Below are positions 2,241 through 36,679 of a DNA stretch of 64,000 bases, in pieces (positions within the stretch are counted from its first letter, which is position 1; every line of letters starts with the position of its first letter). The position numbers were made by a program, and so were the translations under genes. This DNA comes from Glaucostegus cemiculus (Eukaryota). The notes beneath the pieces are model-generated. The model had not been told where the DNA came from. It was given only the letters and a program-made list of their open reading frames with translations, and did not search any database. The stretch is from NCBI GenBank assembly GCA_976551045.1, contig CDPCPM010000013.1:26846001-26910000 (forward strand), given 5' to 3'.

Positions 2241-5200
2241 CAAATTCCCATTCATCTCTCGCGTTTTATTTGTTTTTGTTTCTTACAATGTACTACTTTG
2301 CATGTGATTCATTCTTCTATTGCAGCACGAACTGTTTTTTCTCTCTCTCCGAAGCAGAGATTCAAACACTCCTACACTTTAATTTCCTCGTTCTTTAGAA
2401 GCCCAAATAATCTTATCCTCGCTGCTATTTAATTTGGCTCCTTTCTATTTCGATCGTGGAATCCGCCTTCCATTACTGTAAGGTGCTGATTTATTTTAAA
2501 TACCACATATTCAGAACCGATATCTCCCCCAAGAGAGGCAGCGAAGAAGGGAATCTCTCCGATGTTACAAGCTCTCTGTGCTATTGGTCCAGGTTACACT
2601 TGCATCGGTTTAATTTTGGGACTGCTCCCCGTTGGTCTTAATGTAGATTTCTACAGCTGGAGTCAAAGGCTGTGAGCAGCCTGCGTGTTTTGTAACGTAG
2701 TCAGAATGGTCTGACCTTTATTGCAGCGACTTAGATTTTCCGCAGCGTTTGGAAGCGTTTATCTCGCTCTGCATCACAATAATTGCGACTCAGTACGCTT
2801 TCCGCCCTGTCTCTGCTGGAAGGCTCCATTATTCTGTCACCGTTGCCGATGTTCGGCAGCTACTGCTCCCAGTACTTATCCTGACCTGTGTTTGAAGTCG
2901 CTGGATGCTGGTCGCTACACGTTGCCCTAACAGGACCTAGATGTTTGCAACAGTAGACGTGGGATATGTTTTTTAAAAAATCCCCGTGTCATGGTTATAA
3001 TTATAGTTCGGTGTAGGTGCTGTGAAATTCGGGGAGGTCCAACAGCGAGATAATTTGGCTTTAGTGTTTATCTTAAGCGAGCAGGTTACTTTGGCTTTCC
3101 ATTTCCCTGCAATCCAATTTTATTAGGATATACTATCATTTGTGCGCGGGAATCCCTCGGGAAATAATGCTTTGATTAATGTAATCCTAGGCAGGGATAC
3201 GCCACATGCCCAGCTCCCAGGGGACGAGCCCTGTTTGACAAACAAAAACACAGCGACCACGCCGAGTGCAACTATTACAATCCGCACCCACTCGCGGAGA
3301 TGCATTCTAATATTAACAATAAGGAAAAGAGCAGCCACGGGAACTGCAAGTGCTGCGCTCTGCACCCAGCCTCTGACAGCGGGGTACATGTAGTCTCTAA
3401 TCGCACACTCAGAACATAACCAATGTCAACTAACGCCAAACAGCAAGAAAAAGACCCATTGATAATACGTGATGGAAATTCCTCCTAGGCTGCGTTGAAA
3501 AGACTGTTTTATTTGAATATTTGGAGTAACATTGCGTATCAAAGAACCTTGCAAGCGCTGTAAAAATAAAACGGACGTTTTTATTTATACCCAGAAAAAA
3601 ATGTATATTCCATTGTCACGGCGGCATTAAATAAAAGGCGACAAGTAGCAATCAGGCAGAATGTATATTCCAATATCAAATTGATCTGAAGTTTAAACAA
3701 AAAAAAATTAACTGGGCATGTGTTGCAAATACCATCACCTGCAAGCAAACCAGCAACTGTAAACAATGGTAAAAGAAAGGCACTGCTATTGAGCTGGACC
3801 TATTACACGCCCTTGCTGGCTCGGAGATAGGCACCGTACACACAAATGTAATTCAAACTACATAAAATGCACAGGGCCTCTGGGAGACATGATACAGAAT
3901 AGGTGACATCCACATCCTGATCATGAAACAATTGAAAAATGTCCCGGGATAGATGCTATCCGGGTTCCACCAACATCCTGTTTAACCCCTAATACAAACC
4001 AGCATAAACACATCCAAGAAACGGGATGAATGATAAGCATATTTGAACATGAAGCCAGTGCACAACAAAGCAGCCGGAGCAATCACACTGTGAAGTAGCT
4101 ATTCCAATCCACAGGCAGAGATCCAGTCTCCAAAATAACATTCCTGTTTTCCATGACATAAAACAACAAAAAGAACCTCCCCCTTTGAAATCCATGTTTA
4201 TTCTATTTGATAGATGCTGAATGAACATTGTTAAGTCATAAAACGAGGTAATATCGCGCTAAAACAGAAACAATCCAAAGGAATACCGAACCATCCTAAG
4301 ATTCAAGTGTTTCCCGATCAGTCACGAACCCAAACATGTATCATTTAGCACCAAAACAATCTTTCAATAAGACTTTGCTGTTATACTGTTCATTCTTGTA
4401 CTTGCTTCGCTTTTTATCTTATTTAAGATTAAGAAGGTTGGGAAGGGTTGGGGGAGGGGAAGAGGAGATGGAGGGCCTCTCACGTGCAGCTTCTATAACA
4501 CGGGGATCTTTAACTCTCTTCGGCCGATAAACGATGCAGAATTCTCAGCCAAACAATTAACAAAATCTGACATTTTGATCTTTCTGAGAAACCTGGATGA
4601 CCACTAATGAATGGTACAGACTGTCACTCGCAAAGGGGATGGGGAATGGGCCTGGGCGTTTATTTAGTACTTTTTTTGAAAACTTTAAAAAAAGACGTAC
4701 GGTACACATCCACGTCGATTCAGTACGATGAGATTCCATACTATATCTTAATAAGATTCACAATTCCCTACAACGTTCGAAAATGATACACACCGAAACT
4801 TTGTCTGTATACTACAGTTTTAATACCTTTTTAAAATGTTTTCTATGATTTTTTTCAATAGCCTCAAAGTTAAGAGCGCGATTAATATTTTAACATTAGA
4901 ATCCTATCTATTGCCAGATTATAAAACTATACTGAAGTTGTGGGTTATAAGAGTTGATGATTAATGTAAAGTGAACCTAGGTTAGGTAAACCGTTAGAGA
5001 ATCAACAAGTCCACCTGTGTAGCGACTTTGCTCGGCATAGCACTAATGTTCTGTATATTTATGTTCCAGCCATTACTTATCTAAGATGCACCTTTCTCTT
5101 GAAGTGCTGTATAGCGAAACATAGTTTGTCAGTGTTACATCACTGGCAATCAATTAAAGATGTAGAAAGCTGCGGTTTCAATCCGCAAAATGGTTACACT

Positions 5201-7632
5201 TATCTTTTATTATCCTGTAATGACTACAATATATATGTGTGCATGTGTCTATGTGCTTAAATCTTATAATATCTAATTGCAAATTCAATATCTGTGAAAC
5301 CCCCTCTCCATATCTTTCCGATTTCAACCAAAATAAAAGAAACTACATTCGCTATTGAACAATGTGTTAATTGCTTATTCGATCAGCAATCTGGAACTTC
5401 TGTAGTAAACGTACACCTTGCACCTTGAAGCAATGCTGAATATTACTTAATTGTAAACAAACACTGTAATGAAGGGCGCTCCTTAGCTTTGTAATATCAT
5501 ACTCCGCTAAGTGCAGAGTCATGCAAAACACACCGCGGGAGCCGAGACCTTCTACAACTTTTTGTCCAACAAAAAAAATGTAATAATTAGCGGTGTTAGT
5601 ATGGATAACTAACCCACCCCATTGTAGACAACGCCTGTAAGGTCAGACTGTTGGAATTGTAATGTGTTAAATGAGAACAGTAGCGAAGATAAACCGGTCC
5701 GGAAACAATGGGAATTATACCGTGGAAATGTTTATCGGGAGAGTATTTTTCATCTCCAGCAGTTAATGATGCACAGTCAAATATCCGTGGGAACCTAGAA
5801 ACTGCGTACCTACAGTTTCAGATAAGCAGTTTATTTCTGCGTTATCTGTGCTGTGAATTGGGCTAAACGTTAATTAAAAACTTTTTTATGACAAGTTGAG
5901 GCTTCTAATGCACAAAACTAATTTGCCGTTTATAAAATTATGCAACATTCACAAGCTGGAACAAAATCTTCAATCTGGCCTCTGACTCAGTAGACGTTCT
6001 CCCAAAATGGTACATTGTTGCAGTATAAATAGTGGGGAGACTTCAAGAAACAATGAACTGCCTGCAGAAAGATGCCCGACTTTTAGAGAGCAGAATCACT
6101 CCTCTTTACGCACTCCCGGACTTTTAAATAGTTTCTATGCCAAGATGATTTTCATCCTTTTCTCTCAGTGACACGTTTCACGTGCTATTTCGCCTCTTTA
6201 ATGCCTTGTGTTACTTCAGAGCTTTGATTTGAAAATTTAACTCAGTGGGAAGTCACATTCTCAGTAAACCTTTACCAATCCTTCAGACCCCTCCCAGAAC
6301 TACAGATGTTTAACCTAGTTTTTTTTATCCCCTAAAGCAAAAAGAGCTTCTGGTTGTTCACATCAGAATTAAGCTTTTAAATCAAATTTTTCCCCAAACC
6401 ATCGCCATATTCTGTTAACGAGCAGAACATCAGAGAGTACACTTCGACGTGCACCTTAACTCCAGGGAGACGGTCTATGTTTATTTAATATTCAAGCCAA
6501 CCGTAACAAAGTTAATTCAAACTTCTTAAAATAAGCTGGGGAATCGGGCTTGTACGTAAAAATCTGAGACTGAGCCTTCTCTCCATCTTAAAACTTTAGA
6601 CCATGACAAAACTAAGTAATTAGGAACAACACAGTCAGGTATATATATTTATCCTTTTCAGCAGCACAAACAATTAAGGAGACTAATGCTGAGCTATTGG
6701 CCCGCAGTTTCTGCCGAGTATTCGTCACAGGCTACTTTATGGAAGTGCTTCAGTGAACTACTTGGAATTTTACACTAACGAAACACATTTGTCACTTTCT
6801 CCCGCCTGCTCCTCCCTTTAGCAACTCAGTAGTTAATAAGTGATCTGATTTCAAATTTAAAATTATCCCTGCCCGGTATAATTTCAGTATCTATCGCTCT
6901 AAAACATTTAAGTGTTCTGATCGCGGTACGAAAACTAATTAATGTATTTTTTTATTTAAAATCACTAAAACTTCCAGTAGAATTTAAGAGACTGGGAGCT
7001 ACGTGCAACGTCTCATGTTCAATACTTCAACGCTAAATAGTTGTTATTTTGACTTTTTTATTTATCACCGCGTTATATTTCTCCTTGCTTATAAACTCAT
7101 TCCGTGCCCTTCCCTGTTCCCTTGCTTCTTTTCATTACTTCATCCCAAGCTCTGGTTACTCCTCTGCGCTCTGCTGCATCTTTCCCCGCACGACAGTGCT
7201 CCCTACCGCCCACAGCGTGCAAAGGCAACGTCTTTGAAACTCTCCAAATTTGCATTTGAGCTCCAGACCCCGTGTCTAACAAAATTAACGCCATCCAAAT
7301 AAAAAAAAAATAAGCTATATGTTTTAAAATGTCAGAATTGGGAACAGAAGACAGCTACCTTTATTGAGACTATATAGAGAGTTCTATACACTGACTCGGG
7401 GTCCCGAGCTTTCTTCCTGGCTGAAATGGAGTCCTTTATCTAAACCCGAGTGCACAAACATATAGGTTAATGTGACTACTGTTCTTTCCTTTTATTTCGT
7501 TCTCTATGGCAACGAAAACGCTGTGCGCAGAAATGCACCCCGTCAAGAAAACAAATGATCTTCGGGGAACAGCTCTACATGGCATCTGTTCCAAAGGGGC
7601 ACAGAGGGAAGGAAGGAAGGTAAGAGTGAAAA

Positions 7633-7633
<1 letters not shown>

Positions 7634-7691
<58 letters not shown>
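7634..7691. repeat. Compound microsatellite (GT)n(GA)n
   Basis: Read directly. Confidence 0.95.
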
Positions 7692-7697
<6 letters not shown>

Positions 7698-8108
7698 AAA
7701 GTGTGCGTGTGATACAGAAAGGACTATATATGAGCTTGATGGAGAATTATATGTGTCTGAAAGAAAGAGTCGGCCTGTGAATATGAATCCGAACAATGAA
7801 AAAAATTCATTTTAAACGTTGATACATTTTGTTACCGATCTTTCAAATCAGGGTATTCAATTTAAGTTTAATTTTACAATTTATGGATTTTAGAAAACAC
7901 TGACACGATAAGATCAAATAAAATATTTTATGACACCATGTACGCACAAACTCTTTACAAGGTAACACAATCGATGTTTATAAAATCAGTCGTGTGATGA
8001 AAATGGATCAAAAAGCTGCATCAAAGTTGAAAACGGTGTAAAACTATGGTCCGTTATATCGTGTAATCATACAGTCACACGTGTGTGCGCGCATACATAC
8101 AAATCTGC

Positions 8109-8135
8109 GTGTGTGTGTGTGTGTGTGTGTGTGTG
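8109..8135. repeat. (GT)n microsatellite
   Basis: Read directly. Confidence 0.95.
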
Positions 8136-9949
8136 GTGTTTTAAGTAAGCTTGACATTCAAATTAATTCCATTCGTCACCACGCGAATCTTTTTTTGGAA
8201 TCAGTAATATGAAGTGCCTCGATTTAAAGACGGGAGCTGCGGAGGAAGACAACACTGCCTGAAATGTCATATTTTGGAAGATTTCTTTTACACTTGACCT
8301 TGACAATCGAAGTGCTTCCGGTGTGCATTGAGTTTTACCTTTTGTATTCGATGGAAGGAAAGTTAAAGAAGATTATTTTAGTGTTGCGAGATGGCGGCGT
8401 GTAAGTCTGTGTCTGAGCAGGACGCTCGCACCCACCTCTCCGGAGAACTCAGCCAAGTTCTCTTTAGTTATGATTGATAGTATAGCCTGTGGAAGGACTT
8501 CTCCAAGCCACAGGGCTCGGTTATAGACGGTGGTATCGTTGCACAGTGTGCTCCAGTGTTCACGTTTATTTCCGTGAGATCTCTCAATACGCTTTCGCTT
8601 CGAAGTTAATGCTGGAATCTCATATCCATTGTGACCTTGCCCCCTGCTCTCCGCTTGTCCATTTATGAAGCAGATCCATTTTGATAAAAATATACCGTAG
8701 AAAAATATCAAGCCCAACACTGCAGAGCCTCTAAAGCCCCAAGTCCTAAAATCGAGCTGACGCTATCAATAAATGCGTTGCGTTAAGAATGCACACTTAC
8801 CAGTGGGATAGTCGCTTTCAACTCGTAAATAGTGTAGAAAAGTTTCGCAAATTTGGATTACTGACTTTGCATTTTACTTTCGCTCCGAATTGTTCCTGGT
8901 CGATCCTCGCAAGGATGTGCCCTTATACTGGCTTCACTGAGCCCGACTCTCGCTAGTCTATTATTTTCACCAAAATATATGAAAATTTATGCAAATGTAA
9001 ATCAGTACAAATTGCTCTCTGATGTTTTACTTTTTTCTTGGTGGGGAAACAATTTATGGATGTTTTCTTAAAGACAAAATACATTTTAGGTCTTTCCCAT
9101 CATTGTCATTGACCTTTAAGTTTTTTTTTTAACGCAGCTCTTTTCGGCGGCACATTCGCGTTTCATCAGTCCACCTGAGACATCTTTAAATGCGTGTACT
9201 GTGAAATTCGTAGCAGTAATTTAGACAAAATCCTCACTGTATATTAATGAAAGACGGCCCCATGGCACCGCTGCTATACTCTCCATTCAGTGTAAACAAA
9301 ACCACGAGACTCGGTTTGAGAGTGGTCCAAGGAAAATCTGCTGGAAAGGAAAACATGCTGTTGGGGCTCTGGCACAGACTATTCAGCGTCTGCACCTGGA
9401 GATCAGAGATTTAAATGAGATCTGTGTTACATCTGTAAACTCTTTCGCAGCCCTGAAAAGAAGAAAATCATACGCTTAAATTGTTCAGGTCAATTCCACG
9501 TAAGACGGGTTTACTACCACTAGAAAATATATTTCCTTTTTTTAAAAAAAATACTCTTGTCTGTTACAATTAATCGTTTGCTCTCACCCAAATTGTTAAG
9601 ATCGTGTACAGGACTAAAGTCGTTTGCTTTTACGCCGTTTATTCTTGCAGATCGGAGTGAAGTGGTAAAATGAAACTGGCGCATCCAAAGGGTTCAGTTT
9701 ACAATGCAAGATGAGTCGGATGCATTTCTTACTATTACTTTCGTGAACACACGTCTTGTTCGTTTGCATTAGTCAGGACTTAGTTTAAAATTATCTTTCA
9801 CTCTGAAATGGTCAGCTTGCAACCACCCCCCCCCCCCCCCCCACCCTTTCTAAATTCTGGTCACTAGTTTTTTTTAATCTATTTTCTTGATTTACCAAAA
9901 GGAGAGAGAAAAGCTGTGTGCAGCTTTTCTGCTTGGTCGCATCTCTCTT

Positions 9950-10210
9950 CAACACCCCCCCCCCCCAATCCCACACCCCACACCACGCCCCCCCCCCGTC
10001 CCTCCTCACCCAAACCACAAACACAACGACATTCCCCTAATTAAAAAGCAGCCAATCGGAACCGCCGGAAGGAAGCCGCGCGCCCGAGTCTCGCAGTCGG
10101 AAGGCGTCAATCACCCAGCGGGTAGCCAATCAGCGGGAGCCGCTGGCTCAACTTCCTCCTTTTTTTTGTGGTGTGCGGGGAGAGCGCGGCGCGGCGGCCG
10201 AGGTAAACAC
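9950..10210 (+). promoter_or_regulatory. POU3F3 proximal (possibly bidirectional) CpG-rich promoter
   Basis: Two CCAAT boxes (gccaatcgg ~10051, agccaatcag ~10124), a KLF/SP box ccacgcccc (~9983), ETS-like ccggaagg (~10065) and forkhead ggtaaaca (~10202). CpG-dense, no TATA box, 200-450 bp upstream of the ATG. Confidence 0.75.
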
Positions 10211-10422
10211 TGGCTATGTGAGAAGGGAGCTGTCAAACAGCAGCTCCACCAAGTCCCAGCACCAGCATCCCATTACACAACAACAAAACTCTCAGCAACA
10301 ACAAAAAAAGAGAGCGAAAAGCAAAAAAAAAGAGAGAGAGGGATTAAAAAAAAACACTTTTATTTCTATTTATTTCTGGCAATCAAACAACTGCAAAAAA
10401 AAGACAAGCGAGGGGGAAAGCC

Positions 10423-10683
10423 ATGGCGACAGCGACGTCCAATCCCTACATGCCGAGCAATAGCATCTTGTCGTCCAACTCTATCGTGCACAGCGACTCA
10501 GGCGGTATGCAGCAGGCGACCACGTACCGGGATCCCTCGAAAATGGTGCAAAGCGATTTCATGCAGGGGGCCATCGCCAGCAACGGCCACATGCTCAGCC
10601 ATGCACACCAGTGGGTGACGGCGCTGCCGCACACCGATGCCGGCTCGCCCTGGTCCTCGGCCATGTCCGGCAGCCCCTTGGGT

Positions 10684-10724
<41 letters not shown>

Positions 10725-11616
10725 GCAGCAACAGGACGTGAAGCCGTCGGTGCAGGTCGTGGGCCGGGACGAGCTGCACACGGGAGCCGCTCCGCTGCAC
10801 CACCACCGCCCGCCTCACTTGCCCCCGCACCAGCCGTCTCACGGCGGCCACCCGACCGCCTGGGGGGCGACGACCACGGCTCACCTGCCTTCCATGGGCT
10901 CGGCCGTTCAGCCTCTGATCTACTCGCAGCCTGGGGGGTTCACCGTCAACGGCATGCTGAGTCAGGCGGGAGGGCAGAGCCTGCACCCGGGGCTGAGGGA
11001 CACGCCGGAGCTGGTGGATCACGGGCAGCAGCACCACAGCCACGACCACTCGGACGAGGACACGCCGACCTCGGACGACCTGGAGCAGTTCGCCAAGCAG
11101 TTCAAGCAGAGAAGGATCAAGCTGGGCTTCACCCAGGCCGACGTCGGCTTGGCGCTGGGCACCCTGTATGGCAACGTCTTCTCGCAGACCACGATCTGCC
11201 GGTTCGAAGCGCTGCAGCTGAGCTTTAAGAACATGTGCAAACTCAAACCTCTGCTGAACAAGTGGCTGGAGGAGGCCGACTCGTCGACCGGCAGCCCCAC
11301 CAGCATCGACAAGATAGCGGCTCAGGGCAGGAAGAGAAAGAAGCGCACCTCCATCGAGGTCAGTGTCAAGGGAGCTTTGGAGAGCCACTTCTTGAAATGC
11401 CCCAAGCCCTCGGCGCAGGAGATCTCGACCCTGGCAGACAGCCTGCAGTTGGAAAAAGAAGTTGTCCGGGTTTGGTTCTGCAATCGGAGGCAGAAGGAGA
11501 AACGCATGACGCCGCCGGGAGGAGTGCAGCAGACGGACGATGTGTACTCACAGGTCGGCAATGTAAACGCCGACACACCGCCCTCTCACCATGGACTACA
11601 AACCGCCGTGCAGTGA
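10423..11616 (+). CDS. POU3F3: POU domain class 3 transcription factor 3 (Brn1), intronless, 397 aa
   Basis: ATG in strong Kozak context (aaagccATGg). POU-specific domain ([29 protein letters not shown]...) and POU homeodomain ([10 protein letters not shown]...[15 protein letters not shown]). Paralog-diagnostic segments match POU3F3: [29 protein letters not shown], linker [15 protein letters not shown], and C-terminus [22 protein letters not shown]. Confidence 0.96.
10684..10734 (+). repeat. Coding CAG/CAA repeat encoding Q17
   Basis: CAA(CAG)6 CAA(CAG)7 CAA CAG read directly. Confidence 0.95.
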
Positions 11617-12965
11617 AAGCAAGACGCTAAACATAGACTGTTTAGACTGGATTTTTTTAAAAAAATATGGGACAGAACGAAATCAACAAGATCAGGACTA
11701 TCGCAATGATAGCAGGTTTTCTACTGTGATTGTGAGGCTGGCGATTGCATAGAATGAGTGCATTAAAACTGCAGGTGTCTTTTCTTTTTTAAAAAAATAT
11801 GAAAAATCTGAACCCTCTTGGCTTGTGGTGATCGACAGGTGGACCCCTCCCCACTCCCGTGACCCCAGATACTTCCAGATAAGTGTGAATTCATTCCCCT
11901 GCTGTTTCAGAAGGACTGGTTTATAAAATAATTTCCAATTTGGTCCAGTGAGATCGGCCGTGGTCGCTGGTTGACTGTAAGGTGCCTGGTATACTTCCAG
12001 CGACTTGTTTTTCTTGGTTCTGTCAGGTGCATAGGTAACATGGAAAGAACGAAAATCTTTCATTCTGTTATATCAAATAGAGAAACTGTTCTTAATGTAA
12101 ATCACGGCAATCTGCGGACGAAATGGAGATAATCCGTACTGACTATATAAAAGGAGGACCGGTAAAAGAGGGCCTTTAAAACGCAAAACTTCCGAACAAC
12201 ATTAAACCTGCAAGGCAGGGAAATTTTCAAGAGAAAATAATTAAATGGGTTGATCCAAAAATAATGACAGATGGAACTTTCAGCGGCGAGGCTTGTTGGA
12301 AAAGACAAGACAAAGGACTGGGGGATTTGGGCGAGAAATCGTCCCAGATGTGGCTTTGATGATTGGTTCATTATGTTGTGTTCGACCTCATCCCCACCCC
12401 CTCTCCCAACACCATCCCCCCAAAAAACCTTCGCCCCAATGTTTTCTAATTTCACCTCCAGCCGAATGGAGTAGAAACAATTTTTATTAAAAAGAAAAAG
12501 AGAAAAAAAAAACACTCCACCATCTGCAGCTGCACTTACTGAACTTATCCTCTTCTAAAACCATTGCCAAGTTGAATGAATGGGTGCTGTGGATGCGACT
12601 GTATAAAACTGCCATTTCCAAGCAGTGTTCTTGGTAGGTTTCAATATAGACTTTACAAAGACGGCAATATAGAGTCAGTAGATCAGTTACTGATCTAAAA
12701 AATATTTACTTTATATTTTCATCAAAATTGACTTCTTTTAATATTTTATTCAGAATACCTATGAACTGCTGCAAAACGGTAATTTATTTTTCCCCAGATC
12801 TTGTATTAGATGTTTTCAAAACGAGCACAAATAAATGCGATGAAAAATGGACAGTTGTTAGGTAATAAGGGTATCTTTTGATGTGATAATTTGATTGTAA
12901 TTTAATTTGAGTAGTGATTCCGTAAGAGATGATTCAAGAAATAAATTTGTTAGAGTCAAACGATT
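11617..12965 (+). other. Probable POU3F3 3'UTR
   Basis: Runs from the TGA to AATAAA at 12940-12945, which is followed by a GT-rich downstream element (tcgtgtgtctggtgt, ~12973-12987). A second AATAAA lies at 12830-12835. Confidence 0.6.
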
Positions 12966-12990
12966 TTATGGCTCGTGTGTCTGGTGTACA
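12940..12990 (+). terminator. Polyadenylation signal with GU-rich downstream element
   Basis: AATAAA with a GT-rich tract ~30 nt downstream. Confidence 0.6.
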
Positions 12991-15624: not shown

Positions 15625-15800
15625 ATTCATTTACGGGATGTGGGTGTCGCTAGAAGACCGGCATTTATTGTCCATCCCGCACTGCCCTTGAGCAGGTGGT
15701 GCTGAGCCGCCTTCTTGAACCGCTGCTGTTGTTGTGATGGAGTTATCGCACAGCGCTTTCGGAAAGATAGTGCCAGGCTTTCGACCCAGTATTCAAAAGT
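15625..15800 (-). mobile_element. LINE 3' end (CR1/L2-group)
   Basis: gggatgtgggtgtcgc...gcatttattgtccatccc...gcccttgagcaggtggtg.tgagccgccttcttgaaccgctgc. Homologous to the copy at 24070 and to the reverse complement of the LINE tail at ~46050-46165. Confidence 0.7.
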
Positions 15801-18800: not shown

Positions 18801-21509
18801 AATACTGTCCATCGCTATACTATTTGCAGAACGATTAAGTTCGCCGTGTAGATTCTCACTATAAAGATCCACTTTAAAAGAGCGGTAAATATACGTTGTA
18901 ACAAGGTGCTTAAACCTTTCATAATGTTTAATTTCCCCACTTTAATCGCAGCCTTGCCTAAATCTATATTGAAGCAAGATAAACGAAATAATGGATTCGA
19001 CCAGATGCCAAGTTACTTGAATCTTTTTTGATCCTCTTTTATATGAGATGGTGGGCTTAGTTATCGCTGTGATATTTCCAATTATTTAATTATTTTCAGT
19101 GTTTTATTTTTGTCGAGGATGACTCCAGTATCGGTCAGTGTGGAGGATCAGTTCGTGGAGAACAAGGTTGTCAAAGTCAGAGGAATTCTGGCGAGAAAGG
19201 CAAACGTGACAGAGTAAAGGATGGGGGAGGGGAGATAATATTTGAAACATCAAACAAGCCCCAGAGCTGTTTAACCCTTTCACCATAGATCCCTATACAA
19301 ATTAAACCATACAATATTTCGATTTAAGTGTTTCCAGGTAGCTTCCAATATTAAGTTAACTTCCTCATAAATAGTATTTTCTTAGTTTATTCAACAAATA
19401 GAAATTACCTTCTCCAGCTTTTTATTGCACATATGAGTCACTGGGAGATTACTCGCGGGTAATGGCCTAATATTCTCGTATTTACTATTCAATATGCATT
19501 TATAATCATCTTTTTAAGTTAAATAATCCGATTCGTTTATTATTTTAATGTCACAATTTACGTCAAAATGAATACACGTTTCAGAGATCATTAAAACTTG
19601 ATAATAACAATCACATTGAGCTTTAGGGAACCCACTGGCCGGTAAAATACTGTTCTGAGCTTGATCTGGTAGGTGATTGTAACTGTTGGTAGTATTTGTG
19701 TTTATGTATACGCATGAACTGTTGTGAGGCTACTTTTTATCAACATAAAGAAAGATAATCTGGAACTGATACGGATTGACTCCCATATCAACTGAGTCAA
19801 CAGAAGTTCCAATCAAAACAGATGAGCCCTGTAATTTCGTGCTCTATAGAGAGCCGTAGCGTTCGTTAACATGCACCCAAATACGGTAATATGGAATGAA
19901 ATGCACACGTGGAATTAGCAGGTATATATCCTTACCATTAAACATACGGTTTGATATATCTGTATACATCACCTAATCAGTAGATTGTGCATACACCTTG
20001 AACACAGACGCCATGAGGCACTGTGTGTTTTAATGGTTGGATTACTGGACAACATTCAGGTCCATACTGTTAACAGTGCGTCTTATACCTTGGTTTTATT
20101 GTGACATTGAGCATGACGGTGTGAAATGCTTGGATGGATGCTTAACAGCGCACTTTTTCTTAGATTGTTCCTCACCATGAACAACAGATGGTCTTTGCCA
20201 TAACTCCATTATGTCCTGGTTCAGATTTCCTGGTGGTACATACGGCAGGTCAAGACTAAGCTGAACAGGTATGTGGAATTTTGAGATCTATTTCGAAATT
20301 ACTTTGACACTGGTGAGCCATGTTGTATGGATTGCTTAAGCCGCTCAGTAAATCGGGGAACACCCACAGCAGAAATGAGATGATCAAAGATGGTCGTTCT
20401 TGAATATTGTGCAACTGTTTGGGGGAAATGGAGTTTTTAGTTTCACGAGGGACTTGGAGGAAGTGATATAATCGTGGCCACTGCAATCCACCTGCGTTTG
20501 AATCAGAAACATTTCGAGGTGCAGGAACCTTTCAGCCAAGACCACAGTTCACGAAGTTCTTGTGGGTTCTATCAGTGTAGGCAAGATGCATTGTTTGACT
20601 ATCCTTTTATCTATTGAATTTTAAATTCGGTGAACGTTATCATCGGCTACTGTGTACTGGGCTTTAATTTTGCCACACTACCATATCTTTAACTACGTGA
20701 AAAGCTTCCTGTGTAGATGTGCCCTTGTAGTTATGTACCTCAATTACAACGTTATTTTCCCAATAAAATTCTAATTTTGAAATGTGTGTCATTATGAATA
20801 TCCGCCCCCCACTCCCATTTTCCTTACTAATAATATACAGCATACTAGAATTAGAGTGATATACATATACTTCTTTTAAAGGAAAAGTATTTTGAGAATT
20901 GAGACAAATATCGATAGCCACTGTCCACAACGCTGGCATGAGCCCACCAGTCCTTGCATTTTGCATTTTTAACACAATTAGTTTTCATACAAAATCACTC
21001 AAGCACCATCCACCTCCGGATGGAGATTACAATACATAAGAAAATTGAGTAAAGTTCAGTCAGTAGCCAGCTTCCATTTGTGGGCATACGTTAAGTGAGG
21101 GATTTAGGTTTTAAGCCAAGCTGCACAGTACAGATGGAAGGTCGTGCAAGCTGCGTTCCGATTGCTCTTTCTAATCTATGACCTTTCTGGTACCAATTTA
21201 TAATACACTAGCTCGCTTTTCAAAACTAAAAAAACAACATAGTGGCAGTAAATTTACCATTTTAGAGGAAACTATTTTAACTTAACTATACCATTTCAGT
21301 TGAAGAATTTATGTCTCAAATCGTTGTCTGAGAAGTATACACCAGGGCCTAATGTTCTCTCTTGAAATCCCAGTTATGCCAGAAACCTTGCAAACACTTA
21401 TAGCATTAGCCGAAGATCAGGAGATAGCAAACAATGGATCAATTTTTGCACAGGTATCTGGCATCCTCTTTTTATAAAGAGGTTTTAAGTATTGAAAGAA
21501 TATTTTTTA

Positions 21510-21695
21510 AAGAAAAGATTCTGAAGGAACTCAGCGGGTCAGGCAGCATCTGTGGAGAGATACGGACGGTCGATGTTTCGGGGTCGATATCCCAAAAGGA
21601 CGACCCTCCATTTCCTTCCACAAATGCTGTCGTACCCATTGAGTTCCTCCACCAGTTCGTTTTTTCATGCTGCAGATTCCAGTCTTTGTGTCTCC
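21510..21695. mobile_element. Palindromic Penelope terminal-repeat-derived element
   Basis: ggaactcagcgggtcaggcagcatctgtgga ... ttccacaaatgctgtcgtacccattgagttcc form inverted arms around gatgtttcggggtcga. Confidence 0.7.
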
Positions 21696-23830: not shown

Positions 23831-24064
23831 GATCCTTGCCGCCTTCTCTATTCATCTCCCTTTGCCCACCTGTTACTAAAAAGGCAGATAGGGGCCTTGA
23901 GCTCCATGTGTCTGCCGCAGTCCCACTGCAGTGGCCCCTTCTACTGAGCAGCACCTAGCGGCCATAATCACCAGGGCATAACTTTCAATTGGTTGATTCT
24001 GCGTGATAAAGGAGTTTGAAACTGCGCGTCAGAAATCATGTAACTCTGTTTTCTTTTACAGGTA

Positions 24065-24330
24065 TTGAATGAGGGCATCGCAGGCTAACACAGCATTTAT
24101 TGTCCATCTATAATTGCGCTTGAGTAGGTGACGTGAATCGCCTCCTTGAGCCGCTGCTAGTAATGAAGGCTCTTCCACGGTGCTGTTGGGTGGGCAGTTC
24201 CAGGATTTAGTCCCAGCGGCCCAATCGAGGGAAGTGTTTCTAAGCCAGAATGGTTTTTAACTTGGAGTGCTGGTGGTGTTTCCTTGCGTGCACTGCTCCA
24301 CTTCTGTGTTGGAACCATTATGGATTTTGG
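24065..24330 (-). mobile_element. LINE 3' end, same family as 15625
   Basis: cagcatttattgtccatctataattgcgcttgagtaggtg...cgcctccttgagccgctgc...gttccaggatttagtcccagcg. Confidence 0.65.
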
Positions 24331-26644: not shown

Positions 26645-26795
26645 AAAATAGAAAATGCAAGAAACACTCAGCAAGTAGAAAAGCATTTGTGGAAACGTTA
26701 ACCCTGTTTCTCTTTCCGCAGATGCTGCCTGACCTGCTGAGTGTTTCCAGCATTTTCTGTTTTCATTTAAGATTTCCACCAACTGCATTTTTTAT
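26645..26795. mobile_element. Palindromic Penelope terminal-repeat-derived element
   Basis: agaaaatgcaagaaacactcagcaag pairs with cctgctgagtgtttccagcattttct; central gaaacgttaac. Confidence 0.7.
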
Positions 26796-29278
26796 ATTAA
26801 TTTTGGAAGTCTAATATCTAAGACAAAGTCATTCACAATATTACGCCAAGTTTGTAATTCTTGTGATACGCCAAGTGACTGGATTACAGCAGCTTCGCCA
26901 TGAATGTCGAAAGTGTGATTTCAATGCGGTTTATGGAATCTGAACCTATGGGGACAGAAAACGGAATTCATCTGTAATTTAACATGACGACCTAATTATG
27001 TTTCGGACGTTAACAAGAAATAGTTTTTTTAAAACAAAACTTCCAAACTGCACAGGGACTTGACTTTGCGGGTGCATTGAGTGACCATGATGTCAAAGCG
27101 TTGCAATGTTTCCTCGTGTCCTCTCAATCACACTCGCGTGTTATGAATGGCACTGAACCCATGCCGACCATTACGAGCTGCATTCACGTTTCTCGTTCAT
27201 TTAAACGTCGGTCTTCTTTATTTCTACCCTGCAAGGAGATCATGTTCATCCATACATTCCATGGTATCTTTGCTCACTGGCATCAAGTGAGGGCTGGTGG
27301 CGAGGGCGCATGCTCAATGGCCAGATGAACACTCCAACTGCAAGCTGGGGGTAAAGAAACCGGAGGTCAACATTAGAATCATTTGAATTGCACCGGATTA
27401 TACAAATGGCAATTTTAGTTGCACGTCTCCGACCCAACATCACTATCGATCGGAAATATTCTACAGGAGACTTTTGGCAACGTGGCTGTGTCAGCAGAGG
27501 AAGGGAGTGTATTTGTGTTAAAAGGTGCAAAGCAAACCAACCCCTTGCTTTGTAACGGTAAAGTTAGCTCCAGTGTGGAGGGGATCACGTTGCAGACTCT
27601 GTACTGCTTTCAATCTCGATTGAAACCTAATGCATTAAACTGTGTGTCCTTCCCTCCTCCCCACCTGTGTTAACGATAACCTCGATCATATGTTCTGCAC
27701 TGGACACTTGCAGCTCTCAGTTCTGCCTTCATTTTGCCACGGTTTGCACAGCTCATCGCAGAGCCGTGCTTCATGAGTCCCTCCGCGTGCTTTCCTTTAA
27801 ATCTCCCGCCCTCTCCCCAACAACAGTCACCACACACCCACCCCCACCCTCTCCCCTTCACAGCCTGATTTAATTTGAAATAAGCCAGCCTCATGTGCCA
27901 AGTATCGCATCATTTCTGAAACATCCCTTTCGGCCCGGCGGGGTGATTGATGGGGACACGCTCATAAAATGCGAGCGGCTGTTCTCTTCAGGCGCTTGGC
28001 AGGGTCCATTCCGGGCGCGCTTCCCATCATTTCAACCAGTAGCACATTACTTTCATTTTTAGCATATGGGTGATGTCGGTGCGACAGGAAAGTCACGAGG
28101 ATTTTCCTCCCGAGTCTTTAGATCTTGTCAAAGGTCAAACAAGACGTGCATTCTATTTGTTATGGTGTACGTGAGTGTGGAGATAAATGCAGATCGGTTT
28201 ATAATAACACACTGCATTCTGTGGCTTGCCTAAGTAGATGGAGCAAGGCTCTGCAGCTGGCAAATAAACAGTTGCAATCAATGTTGGATACAAACAAGCG
28301 AGGGGCTGTTTTTTTCACCATTGTGCTCGTAGGGACTCGGCAGCTTTAAACTCGGATGTGCTAAGAATTGCAAAAGATAGTGATAAGACATGAAAAAGAG
28401 ATATGTTCAAGTGAAGATTGCTAAGGTGCACGTCGTTAGCTCCAGGATTTTTAGGTACCCTGCTGTCCATCACTCAGGATACGTGTTGTCACCAGTAGCA
28501 AAACCACACAGCAACCGGAAAGCCAGCAGGGAAGCCACATTCTACACTGTGTGGAAATACATGTTCAATGTACCATGGTAACCCCCCCCCCCCCCGCAAT
28601 TCTGCAAAAATTCTGGTTTACATTCCGAATTTGAGACGTTTCTATAGATAAATCTCTCCAACGGAAGCGGGATCCCACAAGCTGGCAAATTATCGGCACC
28701 TATGCCTGTCACTGCTGCAACTGAACTGAACATGGAGCGGGGAGTGAAATAAATGACAGGAGCTATCGGTAGCATCAAGCTTATCACTGCACTCTTTACC
28801 AAACGTCACATGCCCACACCAATGACGCACCAAGGTAAAATTCCCCGCTGATCAGCGAAACAGGCCCCTCCATATTTCAAACAGGTGCAGAGCCTACCTC
28901 TGTCTTAGGATAGTTTGGGGCAGATGTTTACTACAAGAACACACACGGAGTGTCTCCTTTTGAAATCTTACAAATCTAGCAGGCCGCAGTGTATGCGCGA
29001 ATTCCTCAGTATTATGTGCACGAACTGCCGGTTAGCAAGTTGTGAATCGAAATCTCCGAGTGATAGTGAGAAATTATGATTTCGAGGGGCAACGGACGGA
29101 CAGTTTATTGCAACTGCGTAAAACAGCCGTTTACCGAGGCAGCGGTGAAACAGAATTAGAGGTGCACTCTTTACCAACATTAAGGGCGGTCTTCAAGCAG
29201 CATATCAGCCAACTAAAGAAAGTGAACAAAGATGGGTAACTTTCCATCAAATGGACACACAGATTTCCCATTGATGAT

Positions 29279-29355
29279 AGAAAGACAGACAGACAGACAG
29301 ACAGCTAGATGAATGGAGGGATGGATAGATAGATAGAGACAGGCAGACAGATGGA
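29279..29355. repeat. Degenerate (GACA)n/(GATA)n tetranucleotide repeat
   Basis: agacagacagacagacagacag...gatagatagatag read directly. Confidence 0.85.
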
Positions 29356-32300
29356 CACTCATATCAGAAGAAAAGCGTTCAGTGTTGTTAGAAATGTTAG
29401 GTTTGTTGCTAAACTATTTCTATACTTTTTACGTTTAACGTGTCATTTCTTTGAATGAATACATGTCATCAACGACATTCTTGTACAACATTAAATCAAA
29501 AGACAAGCAATCTAGAAATAAATGTCCCAATTTTCTGCGATGCAGGCGCATAAATTAAACATTTTAAACGCCTACAAAACGTGTCAGAAGATTAGTGTTG
29601 GTCACGATTTTTAGATTATCTGCTGTGAGCTCTCGGATGCTGTGGAAGACTGATTGACTTTGAGCTGAAGGGATTCGGTGTAAAATGAGACGAAACGTAC
29701 AGATCGATGACTGGGGATTAGAATGGATCTTCTGAGAGATTGCGGGTTCTGACAACAGCAGCCGATCGTTACCAGTGGATCTCGAACGATCAAAGGATAA
29801 ATCCCTATTCTGTGGATCTTCACCCATCGATACTAATCCCCAGGGACTCGCCGCAGAGTTTCCAAGGTATCTGTTGGAAATAACAACTGACGAGGAAACA
29901 AGTACTTTAAATGATACCATGTGTATTACTGGGTAAATCAGATCTGCTGTCACTTTGCAATTTTTCTACATATTTTGTATTGTTTTACAATTAAAATACT
30001 TCTTTAAAATACCACCACTAATATTTATCCTGCAACTAGGATGCATCACATTCACGCTACATAAACAAGGTAATTTTCAATTCATTGGCCATTAAGAGTT
30101 CTCATGACATTTATTTCCCTCTTCATTTAATAACTACAAGTCCCGAAATCCTTCGCTGTTTCAATGTGGCTGTCAAGGGATTTGGGACGGCCTATATTTA
30201 TCAGCTTCACTGTGACCTGTCAGTATGTCACATGACCTCCCAGTGGTTCTTTGTCAGGAAGAAACACACCAGGGCAAATCCGAAATTGCCAAGTGTCAAA
30301 AAAAAATAGTCTGTAGGGTTGCCAAACCACAAAACTTTTCCGGTTAGCCAAAACCATAAAGCTAATGTAGCTGTTTGGTGCACAAATCGCTGGTACATTT
30401 CCGTAGTGTAATTTTTTCGAGCTTTCTGTTCTACAGCGGCACTTCAAAGCTTGGAAATCCTTATTGTGAGGATTTAACCACGTTGAATATTTTGGGAAAT
30501 CCGAGGAAAGCAATTCAAAAACTAAGTAAATTGTGAGATTTGATACGTTTAAAGAAGACAATTCCTGAAAGCGACTCTCTTAATTGTGTCTTATATTTCG
30601 GAATGATATTATTGTCCTACAGATCTTTAATGATCCGCTTACAGATCTTTGTAACTTGGTTAAGTTTCCGCGACTGTCCGTTCTCAAGTGATCTCTCAGT
30701 AGAACTTAGCCGGGTAGTTACTTAATGATCAAAGCGTACAATCAATAAAGGATTCCGTAGGTCTATCTTATCACTGCGGGAAAACCAGAGATTGCGGATT
30801 CCACCTTTATCTGATACCATGGTGACCGGCTTTCTGCGGTTGTCCCTTTAGTTGGAGCTTAACTCTGAACCCGTTAAAATGCTACAAGGTCACATATGTC
30901 TACTTTCAATCTTCAGCAATGTTCTACCTTTCAGTTTACCTTTTACACCCAGTATTAAGACTGAGAATCAGCCCATTGCCATGAGTCTTTGCACAGATTA
31001 CGTTTTATCGGAAATATTGAGTTGGAAACGACAATTTGAATTGTTTAAAACTTATTTTAGAGAAACAAATAAGTTGAAAATAAATTGCAAAAGACAACCA
31101 TACTGAAATCAAGACTCTGTTATTCAAATGTAGGGAACCTCAATAAAAAAATAACATAAGTACCGATTTGGAAGACCTAGTGCCAACGATGTTAAAGATT
31201 GTGAACTTACCTCGCACGGGTGGAATTAATAACTTTTTTTTCGTTTATGGCACATTCAATGACGGAACCCATCAAATAATAACGGGATTCCCCTCACTCT
31301 TGCATTTTTAAACCTTTCCTAGCACCTCATGTGTCATCAGAAATAGAAAACTACAGTCAACAAATGAATTAAGAAAATTTGCTCTGCTTGGTGCCTCAGA
31401 TCAAAGCACCAGATACTTTTCATTCGAAGGAAGCAGATTGGAATAAATTATGACCGCGCTGGATTTTAAGTTTTCAATCTGTTTTAATGCCAACGGTTGA
31501 TTTTATAATAATACGCACCTTCCTCTAAGTTCCTCTAACTTTTCCCTTGGAAGGTTGAGCAATGTAATACATATTGTGGAGTCCGACCAATAATACCGCA
31601 GAAAATTCTGTTCTGAAGTCTTATAGGCCTTTTCAGCTTGTGTTCTTAACTTTGAACATAAAATGCATAGCCTGTATGGGAGAATTACACTGACAATACA
31701 TTCACATGTCCAGTCCAATCCTACTTCTTACCAATGATAACTAGAGCGCACTTTAGATCGGCACTAATTTAAAACGTTCTTATAACCGCTTCTATTAATG
31801 GCAAAGGGATTTTTATCTAAACTACATGGGGGGCGTTGGCGGCAGGGGCGTTCCTTTAGTTTATTCATGATTAAACATAGTTTCTTGTGACTAATTGGGA
31901 CGTTTCGACTTAGATTTCTATTTAATAAAATGAAGTTCTGATGCTGGGGTGGGGGGGACCCTTAGTGATAATATCAGAGTTGAGACAGAAGCACCAAAAT
32001 GGTTTAACAAACAGTCTATTAATTTTAATAAATGAAAATTAGAGCCCACAACGACGTCATTGGCGATCACATAAACAATGGACCTGTTATTTTAACAGAG
32101 TCAAAAATCTGTAACACAGACAAAGTGCATCTGTGTAAAAAAAACCTCAGGTTATCCGATTTACTCCACGGAAGGACATTTTCTTAGAAGAGGTTCTGCA
32201 ACCGATACTGTTTTACAGAGAATGCCCAGTGCTGGGGCAGTTCTTTTTAAAGGACCCAAGCACTAAATGGAGATTAGTCTTTCTTTCCTTACCTTTTTGG

Positions 32301-33469
32301 GGTATTTATAAACCGTGTTAAATAGGATAAAAACCTACAAATAATTCAATATTAAATAAAACAGACCGAACATGTACTTGGCCTCTTTCACTCACCGATC
32401 GTTGAACTGTTCCGTGCTCAGTAGCATCGGTCTACGACTTGGAAATGTTTTTGCAGATTTTCCAATCAGGCAAGCTTTCACAATAAACGTCCTAACAAAT
32501 TAAAATGGGAGAGTCACCACACTTGCACATAACGAAGTCGGGCTGAAAATTCCGTGTGCTTTATTTGAACTGGCACTCAAAAGTATACAACAGGTCTTTG
32601 GAGATCCTACAGAATGAAGGGATTCTGCTTTGTTATGGAAACGACAAATCTGTTTAAACGAGAATGGAGCCAGGGACATCGGACAGAAGCTACTAATTAA
32701 TATTGCGCAGGGTGAAGTCTAAATTCATAGCAATAAAAGTAAAGTTAGATGCTATTTTCCTGCGAAACTGTTTATTTCGATATTACGCCAGTCCTGTTTG
32801 ATTTTTTTTGCAAACGTCATCTAATGCAGTGAGTATAGCTTTAAATATTCATGCGAAAAGAATAAATTCTTAAAGGAGAACGCGCTAGAATTACAGATTT
32901 GCTTTTAAAGGTACGTGTTTATGTTTTGACAATTGTAATATCTTGGAAAGTGGAGATATGAGTGCTTTTCAGTGCATTTTTCTTCATCATATCAATTCCT
33001 TCTTGTTTGCTCTGATCCCATACATACGAATGTAAATTCAGACCCATCAATCATCCTTAACGATCTAGTCTGGTCTCACTTACTAAACCAGTCCCCAGAG
33101 ACACAAGGAAGCCTTGTCGTGTTTAGAATAACCGCTTACAAAAAAGACAAACCAGAAAAATAAGACTAAAGAGTAAATATTCAAATTCAAAAGATAAACA
33201 CTACAGATTATAGAAATTTGACAAATATTCGACATCTAAACAATCTAATCCTAAATTATGTGTTTATGTAAATTGTAAAGAATTACTTTACAAGTCTCTT
33301 GGTTTTTATTCTTAACGGTTGGTGTTAATTGGAAATTTAAAATGTTTTAATATCACGCTTTGAAATGTAGCAATTTTTTGGAGATGTATATGTATATTTA
33401 AAACAGAACTTTTTAAAATTGTAAAATATAAAATGGCTTATGTGTGGTAAACAATTATATCAAACTAAT

Positions 33470-34370
33470 AGAGTCACCTCACACCCTCCCGGCCTTCACA
33501 TTCAACGAATCATCTTGCACTATTTCTGACGTCGCTAACGTGATGCTACCACCAAACATATAATGACCCCTCCCTTTCCCCTTTAGTTTCTCGAGACTAT
33601 TCCCTCCAAGGCCCACTCTTCCATTATCCCAATAACTCCCCCGCATCCCACATCATTTCTGGGCAAATGCAACATTTGCCCCTTTACCCCTTTTATTTCC
33701 ACCATCCAAAGCTTCACCATTTTCTTCGGGGCGAAGCAGCGATTTACTCCTCTCGATGTAGCATCCTGTATTTGATGTTAGCAATTTGCTCTTTTCTACA
33801 CTGGAGAGTCTAACTGGATAGGGCGAGTGCTCTACAGATCACCTCTGCTCAATTCACGAGCGCAGCCCCGAGCTTTGGCCACCTGCCATTGTCATTCTTT
33901 ATCCCGGGGGAACTCTGACCACACTTTCCTCAGCCTCCTACACTGTTACCGTGAAGCTCAGTGTAAGCTCAAGTAACAGTACCTCGTCTTTTGACAGGTC
34001 ACGTAACAGACATCGTGTTCAACAATGTCAATTAATGATTCTACTGTTCCAATGTACATCGTCTCAAGATTCAACGTTAGTTTATTTATTTGTCTCATGT
34101 TTTTCACCAGATTCCCTTTCATCGTTTAATCTCTTTTGTCTTCCACTTTATCACAGACCTTTCCTTCTGTCCCTTCTCCCCCAGATCCACAACTGGATTC
34201 ACCCTGGATCTTAATATTTGTTATATCGCTTAACATCTTCCAGTTCTGACGAAAGGTTACCAAGTTGAAACGTTAAGTCTGTTTCTCCCTTCCCAGATGC
34301 TGCCTGACTAATTGAGTACTGACATTGTCTGGTTTTCTTTCTTATATCAGCTGGCGCAACATTTTGTTTT
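33470..34370 (+). mobile_element. Decayed Penelope-like retroelement (GIY-YIG endonuclease region plus terminal repeat)
   Basis: Frameshifted remnants of the Penelope C-terminus (aagcagcgatttact = KQRFT; ctttt.ctacactggagag ~ L.Y.GE; ctcctacactgt = LLHC; cagtacctcgtcttt ~ Q.L.F), followed by the ctgacga...gaaacgtt...cagatgctgcctgac terminal repeat. Confidence 0.7.
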
Positions 34371-34624
34371 TTTATATTAAACTAAGATTATTTAAAATGT
34401 TAATTGTCAATTAACCTTTATTAGTCTATTAGAATACTAACATTATGATCTTAGATAAAAATCACCTGCCAGGGCTTGTTTGAAAAACAACACAAGATAT
34501 TATTGCCACCTTAGACATATAAAAATCGATACTTAAATTTAATATTTTCCCAAACATAGCCGATTCACATTCGCCTGCCTGGAGAGGGAATAAATGATCC
34601 TCAAAGACTAATTGCTTAAGTCTT

Positions 34625-34643
34625 TACCGCCATCTAGTGCTAA
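34625..34643 (-). promoter_or_regulatory. CTCF-binding motif
   Basis: Minus strand reads TTAGCACTAGATGGCGGTA, matching the CTCF core CCASYAGRKGGCRS at all but the first position. Confidence 0.65.
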
Positions 34644-36679
34644 CAGAAGCAGTAGGTGACACGAAAATCAACAGTGCCCCGTTTGTTTAGGCCACAGTGG
34701 AAACCCGCGAAAATATTTGGAGTGCACATTCAAAATTAAGGGTTGCAGTTAGCATTTATAAATCTACGCAACGATCTTTATAGTTCCAAATTAGCTACAG
34801 ATAATTATGGCATAATTTTTTGTCTTAAAGGAATGACTTGAAATATCAATCAATGTTTTTATCTTTTCAATATCACAACATTATTTAATTATTCATGTTG
34901 CAGGAAAGAAACACAGACATTTCAGAAGAGCAAATTAACAAAGCCTCAGAAGTATCCAGAATGTTGAATTCAGTTCATTTCATATTATTTCTATGGCCCA
35001 AAACCTCTGTGACAAGCAGTACAAATATTCTGTTTTAGTGTACTCTTAGTTGCTTTCCTTCGTGGCTCACACTTTTGATTTGTTTTAATACATTTGGCAA
35101 GTGCATGGGCACAGTCCCAAATTCATAATCCTCAAATGACCACCAAACCCAATTTTAAGTTTCTTCCTAATTATTCTTAACTAATTGCTGAAGTCTGATC
35201 ATCTTGCTGGTCTAGACTGACCACCATCCTTAGTGGTCAATTCATTTCAGATTATGTGTTTGTTCCCTCCCCCCTAGAGATTCTTTGCTTAATTTTCTTT
35301 CAGTACTGCCCTGCCAGGACTTATCCCATGGCCCAGAAAAGCAGAGCATCCATAAATAAGTCTTTAGGATTTTTGTGGAGAAATGCTGAGTCTAAGCCCA
35401 TCAACTTGATATTCTATTCTAATTAAATTTAACATAAGCTTCCAAAAATATACTTCATTCTTACTATAAATTCTGGACCTGCTGATATTAACCCCATTCT
35501 TTACAGTGATTATCATTATTTCCTCCAAAATTAAGATAATCCCCAGAAGAAATGAAAGCCTACCTATATTTGTACACAGACATGCATTGCAGACCTTGCT
35601 AACAGACAGACTGCAAATCACAGACAGGTACAGCTTTACAGCTACCAGTTGCAGGTCAGTATAATTGCAACCCTCGTTTAGTTCCTTTTGATATACAGCT
35701 TGCAGAAAGGGATATTGTTTCATTTGACGTATGAGAACCTAAGAAAGGAATTTTGTTCAGGATAAACACAAACACATGTTAAGCTACTAAAATTTGACAT
35801 ATTTCATCCTGCTGTTAAGGGGAATGTATTAATTTACCAGATAAACCCAGAAAATCTTGTTAATATGCTTAAAACTTATATGTCAAAGAAATCAGGCCAA
35901 TTTTGTTAATGGCTTTTTCTAAAAGATTAAGAAAATAACAATAGTTTATTTAAAAGAGACTTATTGTAAAATATGTGCGCTCACATTCATCATATCAACA
36001 ATGTAGTCATACAAAGATTTGATACATTCTACAACATGTTAATTGTAGCAAAGTTCAGTGTGTGGTTGATATAAACAATGGCAAGCATGAGAAGCTCCAA
36101 ATTAGCCAGTCTGATAGTACTAAGGGAGTTTGCTGTGTTCATTAACTTTCATTACACATATTCTCCTCCATATCCTATTCTGTAGTTTCATCCACAATTT
36201 CACCAAAGTACGTTAGTGGCAGTAAATTGATTTCCTTATAAAAACACACTGAAAAATAGTAAATTGAAACCAAAATAAAAGCAGAAACAACTACTTGGAT
36301 AAATTAATCTGACACAAGGAGAATAAACAATCTTTCAACAATCAGTGATTAGGAGAATTGGGAGACAGAGGTTCTTGAGTTGACAATAATTCTATCAATT
36401 AACTGACACATTCACCAATATAACAAGTGATTTTTGTTCAGACATAAATTGTTCACTGTAGCGCAGTTTGGGGCAATCAGATCTTTTTTCTGGTTAGTCA
36501 CTGAATCCAAATAAGGTCTCTTCAAAAATCTCAAAGTGAAGTTATTTGAAATGTATGGCTATAGTTACTACCACTTTCACACATTAACATTCCACAAACT
36601 AAATACGGTGTAAGTTGAAGGAGATTGGTAGATATATTGACTAATGCAGCAGGGAAACACTCTTCTTTGAATACTGCAG

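Follow-up and report, generated by a model that had tools for sequence, protein, structure and literature searches.

Described methylation valleys and the POU3F3 locus

DNA methylation valleys are regions of 5 to ~60 kb that have developmental transcription factors at their centre, extend over non-island DNA and show low deamination (PMC5806489; PMC8941758), and Polycomb, with TETs, maintains their non-island parts (Li et al. 2018, PMC5806489). Here we analyse a window of 64,000 nucleotides from Glaucostegus cemiculus (C13:26846001-26910000 of the 2.85-Gb assembly; positions below are window positions unless a contig is named), in which the gene POU3F3 lies in a sharply bounded block of AT-rich DNA that is not depleted of CpG and is very probably the mutational footprint of such a valley. 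Like the described valleys, the block covers a developmental transcription-factor gene and, at 32.5 kb, falls within 5-60 kb, whereas its classical CpG island measures 1.9 kb; its size is that of a sequence footprint. The valleys, in contrast, were defined by bisulfite data, and the POU3F3 domain is known here from sequence alone.

POU3F3, a gene of brain and kidney, is itself a published valley gene. Pou3f3 appears in the valley lists of 21/21 mouse samples, sperm and oocyte included (PMC5806489; PMC8941758), POU3F3 is also in human valley lists, and its human gene body is described as a canyon with 4.9% methylation in the cell line used, in a somatic and tumour context (PMC6085761; no canyon coordinates were found in the available text or supplement). 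An earlier note on this DNA had placed it among the developmental transcription factor genes that sit in such valleys, and these sources agree. In mouse, chr1:42.740-42.772 Mb is called as one 31-34 kb block in 9/21 samples, as near-contiguous pieces over the same span (42.74-42.77 Mb) in 5/21 and as shorter calls in 7/21, among which are sperm, with 6+8 kb, and oocyte, with 19 kb (PMC5806489; PMC8941758). Since Pou3f3 lies at 42.7 Mb of mouse chromosome 1 in a different assembly (PMC4803225), this interval is very likely its valley. The footprint described here differs from the mouse and valley set in being uniform and AT-rich with one classical island, and from the mouse germ-cell calls in that it spans all 32.5 kb. 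Assigning the mouse interval to Pou3f3 also relies on what we take to be the mm9 position of the gene. The match in length between mouse and ray may be real conservation or chance, because the borders are not aligned between the two species.

Broad non-methylated islands cover whole developmental genes and carry H3K27me3 (Long et al. 2013, PMC3583005), and those of zebrafish have a high CpG observed/expected ratio (o/e) and background-like GC and are missed by island callers; unlike the POU3F3 domain, they were defined by Bio-CAP, in seven species that include no cartilaginous fish (PMC3583005). Hyperconserved CpG domains mark Polycomb targets where CpG decays slowly, are recognised from sequence alone and lie in valleys in 146/190 cases (cited in PMC5806489). 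Unlike these, the POU3F3 footprint is visible in the composition of a single genome. Hyperconserved CpG domains reportedly derive from primate-type alignments in GC-rich mammalian islands. The elephant shark is globally methylated, its liver pervasively so, transposons included (PMC5437953). A literature search, with most subscription papers beyond reach, returned nothing on sequence-level valley footprints in cartilaginous fishes and nothing on CpG loss followed by gain in valley-embedded transposons; the accessible parts of PMC10115646, PMC13047888, PMC9842680, PMC3595034, 10.1101/780551 and 10.64898/2026.06.15.732472 have no bearing on either subject. Publications already cover valleys, the low deamination in them and the AT-rich form that they take in fishes, and this locus adds a cartilaginous-fish member.

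Composition and borders of the CpG domain

The argument rests on the following features:

2260..34776, CpG-undepleted, AT-rich block of 32.5 kb; o/e 0.75, GC 0.41
9766..11660, no strand, CpG island, the sole Takai-Jones one in the window, over promoter and coding sequence (CDS); GC 0.58 over 9801-11700
10423..11616, + strand, POU3F3 CDS (open reading frame), single exon, 397 aa, class III POU protein (POU domain and homeodomain) with a poly-Gln tract

The two borders come from a two-change-point maximum-likelihood fit (2260, support 1955-2389; 34776, support 34725-34939; 2 delta lnL 565 versus one rate), in which C is followed by G in 15.2% of cases inside the domain and 3.3% outside. They fall close to the steps in o/e that the earlier note had expected at ~2.3 and ~34.8 kb. 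The ratio is 0.75 (1008 CpG) in 2300-34780, 0.27 in 1-2299 and 0.17 in 34781-64000, and it is at least 0.51 in 32/32 full 1-kb bins from 2001 to 34000. Counting reproduced what had been estimated by eye, with 26 CpGs in 31.0-32.0 kb (~25 in the note) and a collapse outside, to 4 in 35.0-36.0 kb and 0 in 841-1440. The 100-kb flanks beyond the window have o/e of 0.20 and 0.22, with no further high segment >4.1 kb, and the left border is therefore not a window-edge effect. Within the domain the spacing of CpGs is even (mean gap 32 bp, longest 248 bp); the longest CpG-free gap outside is 1561 bp.

The proposed check of TpG/CpA excess gave 1.16 inside and 1.33 outside the domain, GpC is flat (1.08 vs 1.07), and GC is 0.395 in the domain minus the gene core and 0.378 in the right flank. 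The compositional step is confined to CpG and its decay products. With its GC of 0.41, the domain as a whole fails the classical CpG island test (GC at least 50-55% and o/e at least 0.6-0.65); the Takai-Jones criteria are passed by 5.8% of it and the Gardiner-Garden criteria by 16.8%, and GC-based island callers would largely miss it, as had been predicted. The POU3F3 CDS lies entirely within the domain, of which 8163 bp precede the ATG upstream and 23159 bp follow the stop downstream, an asymmetry previously given as ~8 and ~23 kb. The domain is real, sharply bounded and ordinary in kind.

Substitutions against related species

Of 24 sequencing runs listed, 15 contain a part of the sequence words sampled and none contains half of them. 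Contigs of five organisms (7 runs) were aligned to 29777-39776 and 29777-34776, the inside part being the 5 kb at the right end of the domain. Inside the domain, runs X5 and X8 give hardly any cover and that of X1 is patchy; gaps in cover were given no weight. The ratio of transitions to transversions (ts/tv) inside the domain is 1.37 (X12), 1.28 (X13), 1.29 (X2) and 1.18 (X9); the outside values are 1.86 for X12 (obtained by subtraction), 2.16 for X5 and 2.31 for X8. Per kb, there are 18-21 transversions inside vs 15-18 outside and 23-28 transitions inside vs 33-35 outside. As transitions are reduced and transversions are not lower, the 5 kb tested is not more conserved than its flank. Among the rows listed, CpG context was classed for 39/40 inside and 36/40 outside; row 34124, a repeat pile-up, was dropped together with three scattered rows. 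In 29777-31863, which holds 57 CpGs, 2/23 shared transitions among those listed touch a CpG. The background rate predicts 1.2 such transitions, and a tenfold rate predicts 12 (P 5e-4).

The inside substitutions are also asymmetric between strands. In 29777-34776, T>C changes number 42-51 vs 22-36 for A>G, and G>C 13-18 vs 2-6 for C>G (4 non-independent runs); T>C and A>G are balanced outside the domain. Transcription in the germ line or an origin of replication might account for this asymmetry.

Repeats inside and outside CpG domains

Repeats cover 4.3% of the domain and 11.9% of its right flank, and long matches of at least 90% identity occur outside only, in keeping with the earlier remark that young-looking insertions lie mostly outside. 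Over 1.26 Mb of unbiased stretches, the cover is 4.0% of domain bases vs 24.2% of the rest. A set of 695 repeat copies comprised 28 inside domains, 640 outside and 27 at edges, the last being left out. In copies at least 5% diverged, 54/90 family CpG sites are kept inside vs 1030/3605 outside, and CpG was gained from TpG/CpA at 43/877 sites inside vs 510/26044 outside. Ranked against outside copies of matched divergence, the 14 inside copies with at least 3 sites fall at the 80th percentile (per-copy Wilcoxon p 0.003). Below 5% divergence retention shows no difference (17/36 inside vs 706/1369 outside). Inside copies keep 38/75 sites within 2 kb of a border and 33/51 deeper, a weak trend that fits edge movement. 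The idea that all insertions were first methylated finds no general support in the 17/36 sites kept by young inside copies, a figure dominated by one edge copy.

The repeat copies of interest in the domain are:

15626..15789, no strand, old repeat copy; o/e 0.83; same family as 24074-24218 (o/e 0.71)
21495..21683, no strand, old palindromic short repeat copy; o/e 0.90
26645..26817, no strand, younger copy of the 21495..21683 short repeat family, 88% to its best long match; o/e 0.37
33470..34340, + strand, old remnant of a high-copy retroelement; 26 CpG, o/e 0.67; 7935 candidate copies

The remnant at 33470 is one that we take, by resemblance, to be Penelope-like. A Pfam search of translations gave no match in 7/7, and in a GIY-YIG test of the label one relative (L078) has LYIGET following a Cys-rich stretch. 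Identity of the remnant to 29 fetched copies is 60-67%, with none closer than 67%. Among these relatives, the 21 young outside copies retain 185/580 CpG sites while their non-CpG divergence is 6.7%, which puts the CpG rate at 8.5 times background; the bulk of the genome is therefore undergoing deamination.

The earlier note had described the remnant as rich in CpG and as having kept the CpGs of its element. It is indeed CpG-rich, and the second part is rejected for this copy. At 19 family CpG sites in 33466-34065, 15 now read TG, CA or TA, 1 is otherwise changed and 3 are CG, whereas 18 of the 21 CpGs in that interval stand at non-family positions. Outside copies have a median of 4 and a maximum of 17 non-family CpGs, and 11.6 would be expected if no new CpG ever decayed. 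That the decay was inherited from a shared source element is unlikely, as two CpG decays in the remnant create in-frame TGA stops and its choice between TG and CA does not follow that made in other old copies (116 agree and 98 disagree over 29 copies, summed by hand). Organisms B-E have contigs that cover the remnant, and it is older than the split from these organisms; it is 7% diverged from organisms D and E, the pace of the flank, yet CpG-rich. Because 16/19 family CpGs were lost and 18 CpGs lie at other sites, the remnant was probably methylated after insertion and then long protected; this is the simplest history, drawn where no close relative defines the source element. The copy probably came under protection later, through a shift of the border or through release of the aged element from silencing.

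The short, partly palindromic and very abundant family is present at 21495-21683, 26645-26817, 34205-34387, 46561-46709 and 51875-51994, and it also makes up the tail of the Penelope-like remnant. A repeat remnant suspected by eye at the left border (~2100-2250) was undetected by blastn or nhmmer.

Similar domains elsewhere in the genome

Twenty homeobox loci (of 150 listed, the best-scoring distinct ones, Hox clusters and POU genes excepted) were compared with 20 arbitrary 10-kb windows at round coordinates. A 10-kb o/e of at least 0.5 was found at 18/20 homeobox loci vs 0/20 arbitrary windows (medians 0.77 vs 0.22). When 10 of the 18, picked for high o/e, were extended to 50 kb, they showed gene-centred domains of 12.8-27.2 kb with o/e 0.68-0.85 and GC 0.37-0.46. 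All four POU3 genes of the genome lie in such domains, those of the other three measuring 18.2, 15.4 and 5.6 kb. The downstream bias of the POU3F3 domain, the longest of 14 gene-centred domains measured, is seen again on C16 and reversed on C288. In contrast, 0/10 housekeeping-type loci (HSP70 or L7Ae family) have a 10-kb block with o/e of at least 0.5; their islands are mostly 0.3-3 kb with higher GC. Exceptions are a segment of 13.4 kb that is patchy and has an o/e of 0.43, another of 6.9 kb with GC 0.57, and others 3.1-4.8 kb long with o/e of 0.42-0.58. With the pattern recurring at 18/20 homeobox loci, the notion that the POU3F3 domain is unique in the genome is rejected. It is typical of developmental transcription-factor loci here, and nothing about it is special to POU3F3.

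The 2/20 exceptions, L113 and L118 (o/e 0.36 and 0.38), are CpG-depleted homeobox regions, presumably of an Nkx1-like and an Nkx3-like gene judged by motif. On C16, a second CpG-retaining, AT-rich domain of 16 kb (C16:32763975-32780118; L021-L023) lies 20-36 kb upstream of a POU3F2-like gene and is separated by depleted DNA from that gene's own domain; a lncRNA promoter or an enhancer cluster are candidates for it. C172:1987010-2241697 holds about ten intronless HSP70 genes in tandem, some with stops, near a POU2-like gene.

Explanations for the domain

We consider a methylation valley around POU3F3 the very probable source of the domain. The surroundings of the gene would have been unmethylated in the germ line over a long time, and CpGs there would have escaped the C-to-T decay that depleted the rest of the genome. 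A balance of mutation, in which new CpGs survive and few decay, would set their density, without selection on each CpG; because the domain would be unmethylated in the germ line, CpG could drift to a balance near 0.75 without GC enrichment. As in other vertebrates, Polycomb and TET activity may keep the non-island parts unmethylated. Low deamination, which marks valleys with their non-island parts included, was found both in the substitutions on 5 kb and in the repeat tests. These independent tests of the sequence favour a loss of methyl-CpG deamination over constraint, and the earlier proposal that the domain records long-term germline hypomethylation gains support from the drop in ts/tv, the near-background rate of CpG transitions among the rows listed and the retention and gain of CpG in repeats inside such domains.

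Several points weigh against this explanation. The o/e of the domain is still below 1 and TpG/CpA still 1.16, and partial or past methylation is therefore allowed. The mouse sperm and oocyte valley spans only part of the 32 kb (PMC5806489; PMC8941758). The substitution test spans only 5 kb at the right end; the sole inside/outside pair from the same run (X12) gives a Fisher p of 0.10, the values of 0.011 and 0.0009 come from pairs of different runs of one organism, and the ts/tv values of the four organisms are not independent because most of the branch is shared. A fivefold CpG rate, which would predict 6 CpG-touching transitions in 29777-31863, is still compatible with the count (P 0.06). 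Among the rows listed, 0/22 outside transitions have a CpG in either species (one is a TG/CA swap; that kilobase holds 3 CpGs), and because no classified outside transition had a CpG, the ts/tv contrast is indirect. The repeat tests, for their part, are partly circular at the edges because domains were defined by CpG.

If the domain were instead a dense enhancer cluster under purifying selection, its CpGs would be kept through overall sequence constraint whatever their methylation. The locus does lie in a block of ultraconserved elements (PMC3436827), two paralogous non-coding elements stand upstream of POU3F3, and repeats are depleted across all domains sampled (4% vs 24%). Against this, transversion density inside is not lower, the right-end remnant diverges from organisms D and E by 7%, as the flank does, and is still CpG-rich, CpGs are evenly spaced with no gap above 248 bp, and new-site CpGs arise in dead repeats; we regard constraint as improbable. 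GC-biased gene conversion, or another regional repair bias that restores C/G and so maintains CpG, is very improbable. It would account for the fewer differences from C/G in the window to T/A in the partner inside the domain (2.7-2.9% vs 4.5-4.9%) and for the slightly raised GC (0.395 vs 0.378), but CpG is up fourfold with GC nearly constant and GpC flat, and differences from A/T to G/C are not raised inside (2.1-2.8% vs 2.7-2.9%).

The very sharp right border might suggest misassembly, contamination or a segment inserted from a little-methylated genome. However, a run X12 contig (33205-35215) spans that border, the inside is covered by four runs of four organisms at 4-7% divergence, MRPS9 synteny is intact and the pattern occurs at 18/20 homeobox loci. 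An artefact or foreign origin has a negligible probability, being refuted by the border-bridging contig and by recurrence.

Border signals and neighbouring features

Three further features lie within the domain:

7460..7516, + strand, second non-coding element shared with the C288 POU3 paralogue, order kept; 84.7% over 59 bp, E 1e-7
8961..9004, + strand, non-coding element also present upstream of the C288 POU3 paralogue; 88.6% over 44 bp, E 4e-8
34628..34640, - strand, CTCF-like motif, ~140 bp inside the right border; 1 mismatch to the consensus as we presume it; compatible with chance

CTCF-like matches in the window number 2 vs 0.95 expected, and 25/100 shuffles reach 2. In the domain of the C288 paralogue, a CTCF-like motif oriented like the one at 34628-34640 lies 394 bp from the right border, on its inner side. 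As a general border signal CTCF was rejected, since a match with at most 1 mismatch occurs at 2/34 domain borders and allowing 2 mismatches reveals no enrichment. Nor does GC skew flip cleanly at the borders.

We take the C288 paralogue to be POU3F4-like, the element at 8961..9004 to hold an octamer motif, a possible POU autoregulatory site, and that at 7460..7516 to hold an RFX-like box. A 16-unit CAG tract at 10687-10734 encodes the poly-Gln of the POU3F3 N-terminus. The same contig carries, ~177 kb downstream and on the same strand, Ribosomal_S9 (MRPS9-family) exons, and because MRPS9 is a known neighbour of POU3F3 (PMC3436827; PMC6347452) this synteny identifies the gene as POU3F3. A 1.0-kb CpG island 125 kb downstream (C13:26982045-26983059; L018:2045-3059), with an ATG-led exon resembling a mitochondrial leader and, on the opposite strand, possibly a divergent gene, is likely the MRPS9 promoter. 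An Rfam search of the 64-kb window gave 0 matches to structured RNA.

Significance

A broader proposal has three parts, and as a whole we find it tentative and rather doubtful: that the cartilaginous-fish germ line keeps a whole valley of somatic size unmethylated, so that borders could be mapped to ~200 bp genome-wide from one genome; that the POU3F3 valley has been ~32 kb since the shark-mammal split, the mouse germ line protecting its core only; and that dead transposons, having lost their own CpGs and gained new ones, would record border history and provide a clock for valley expansion. A simple CpG-ratio scan of this genome finds sharp domains of 6-33 kb at developmental regulators that GC-based callers miss, and such a scan is useful in a lineage whose germ-cell methylomes are hard to obtain. 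Two questions become testable: the similar size of the mouse somatic valley raises that of whether jawed vertebrates inherited valley extent from their common ancestor, and the loss and later gain of CpG in an embedded transposon raises that of whether valley borders move.

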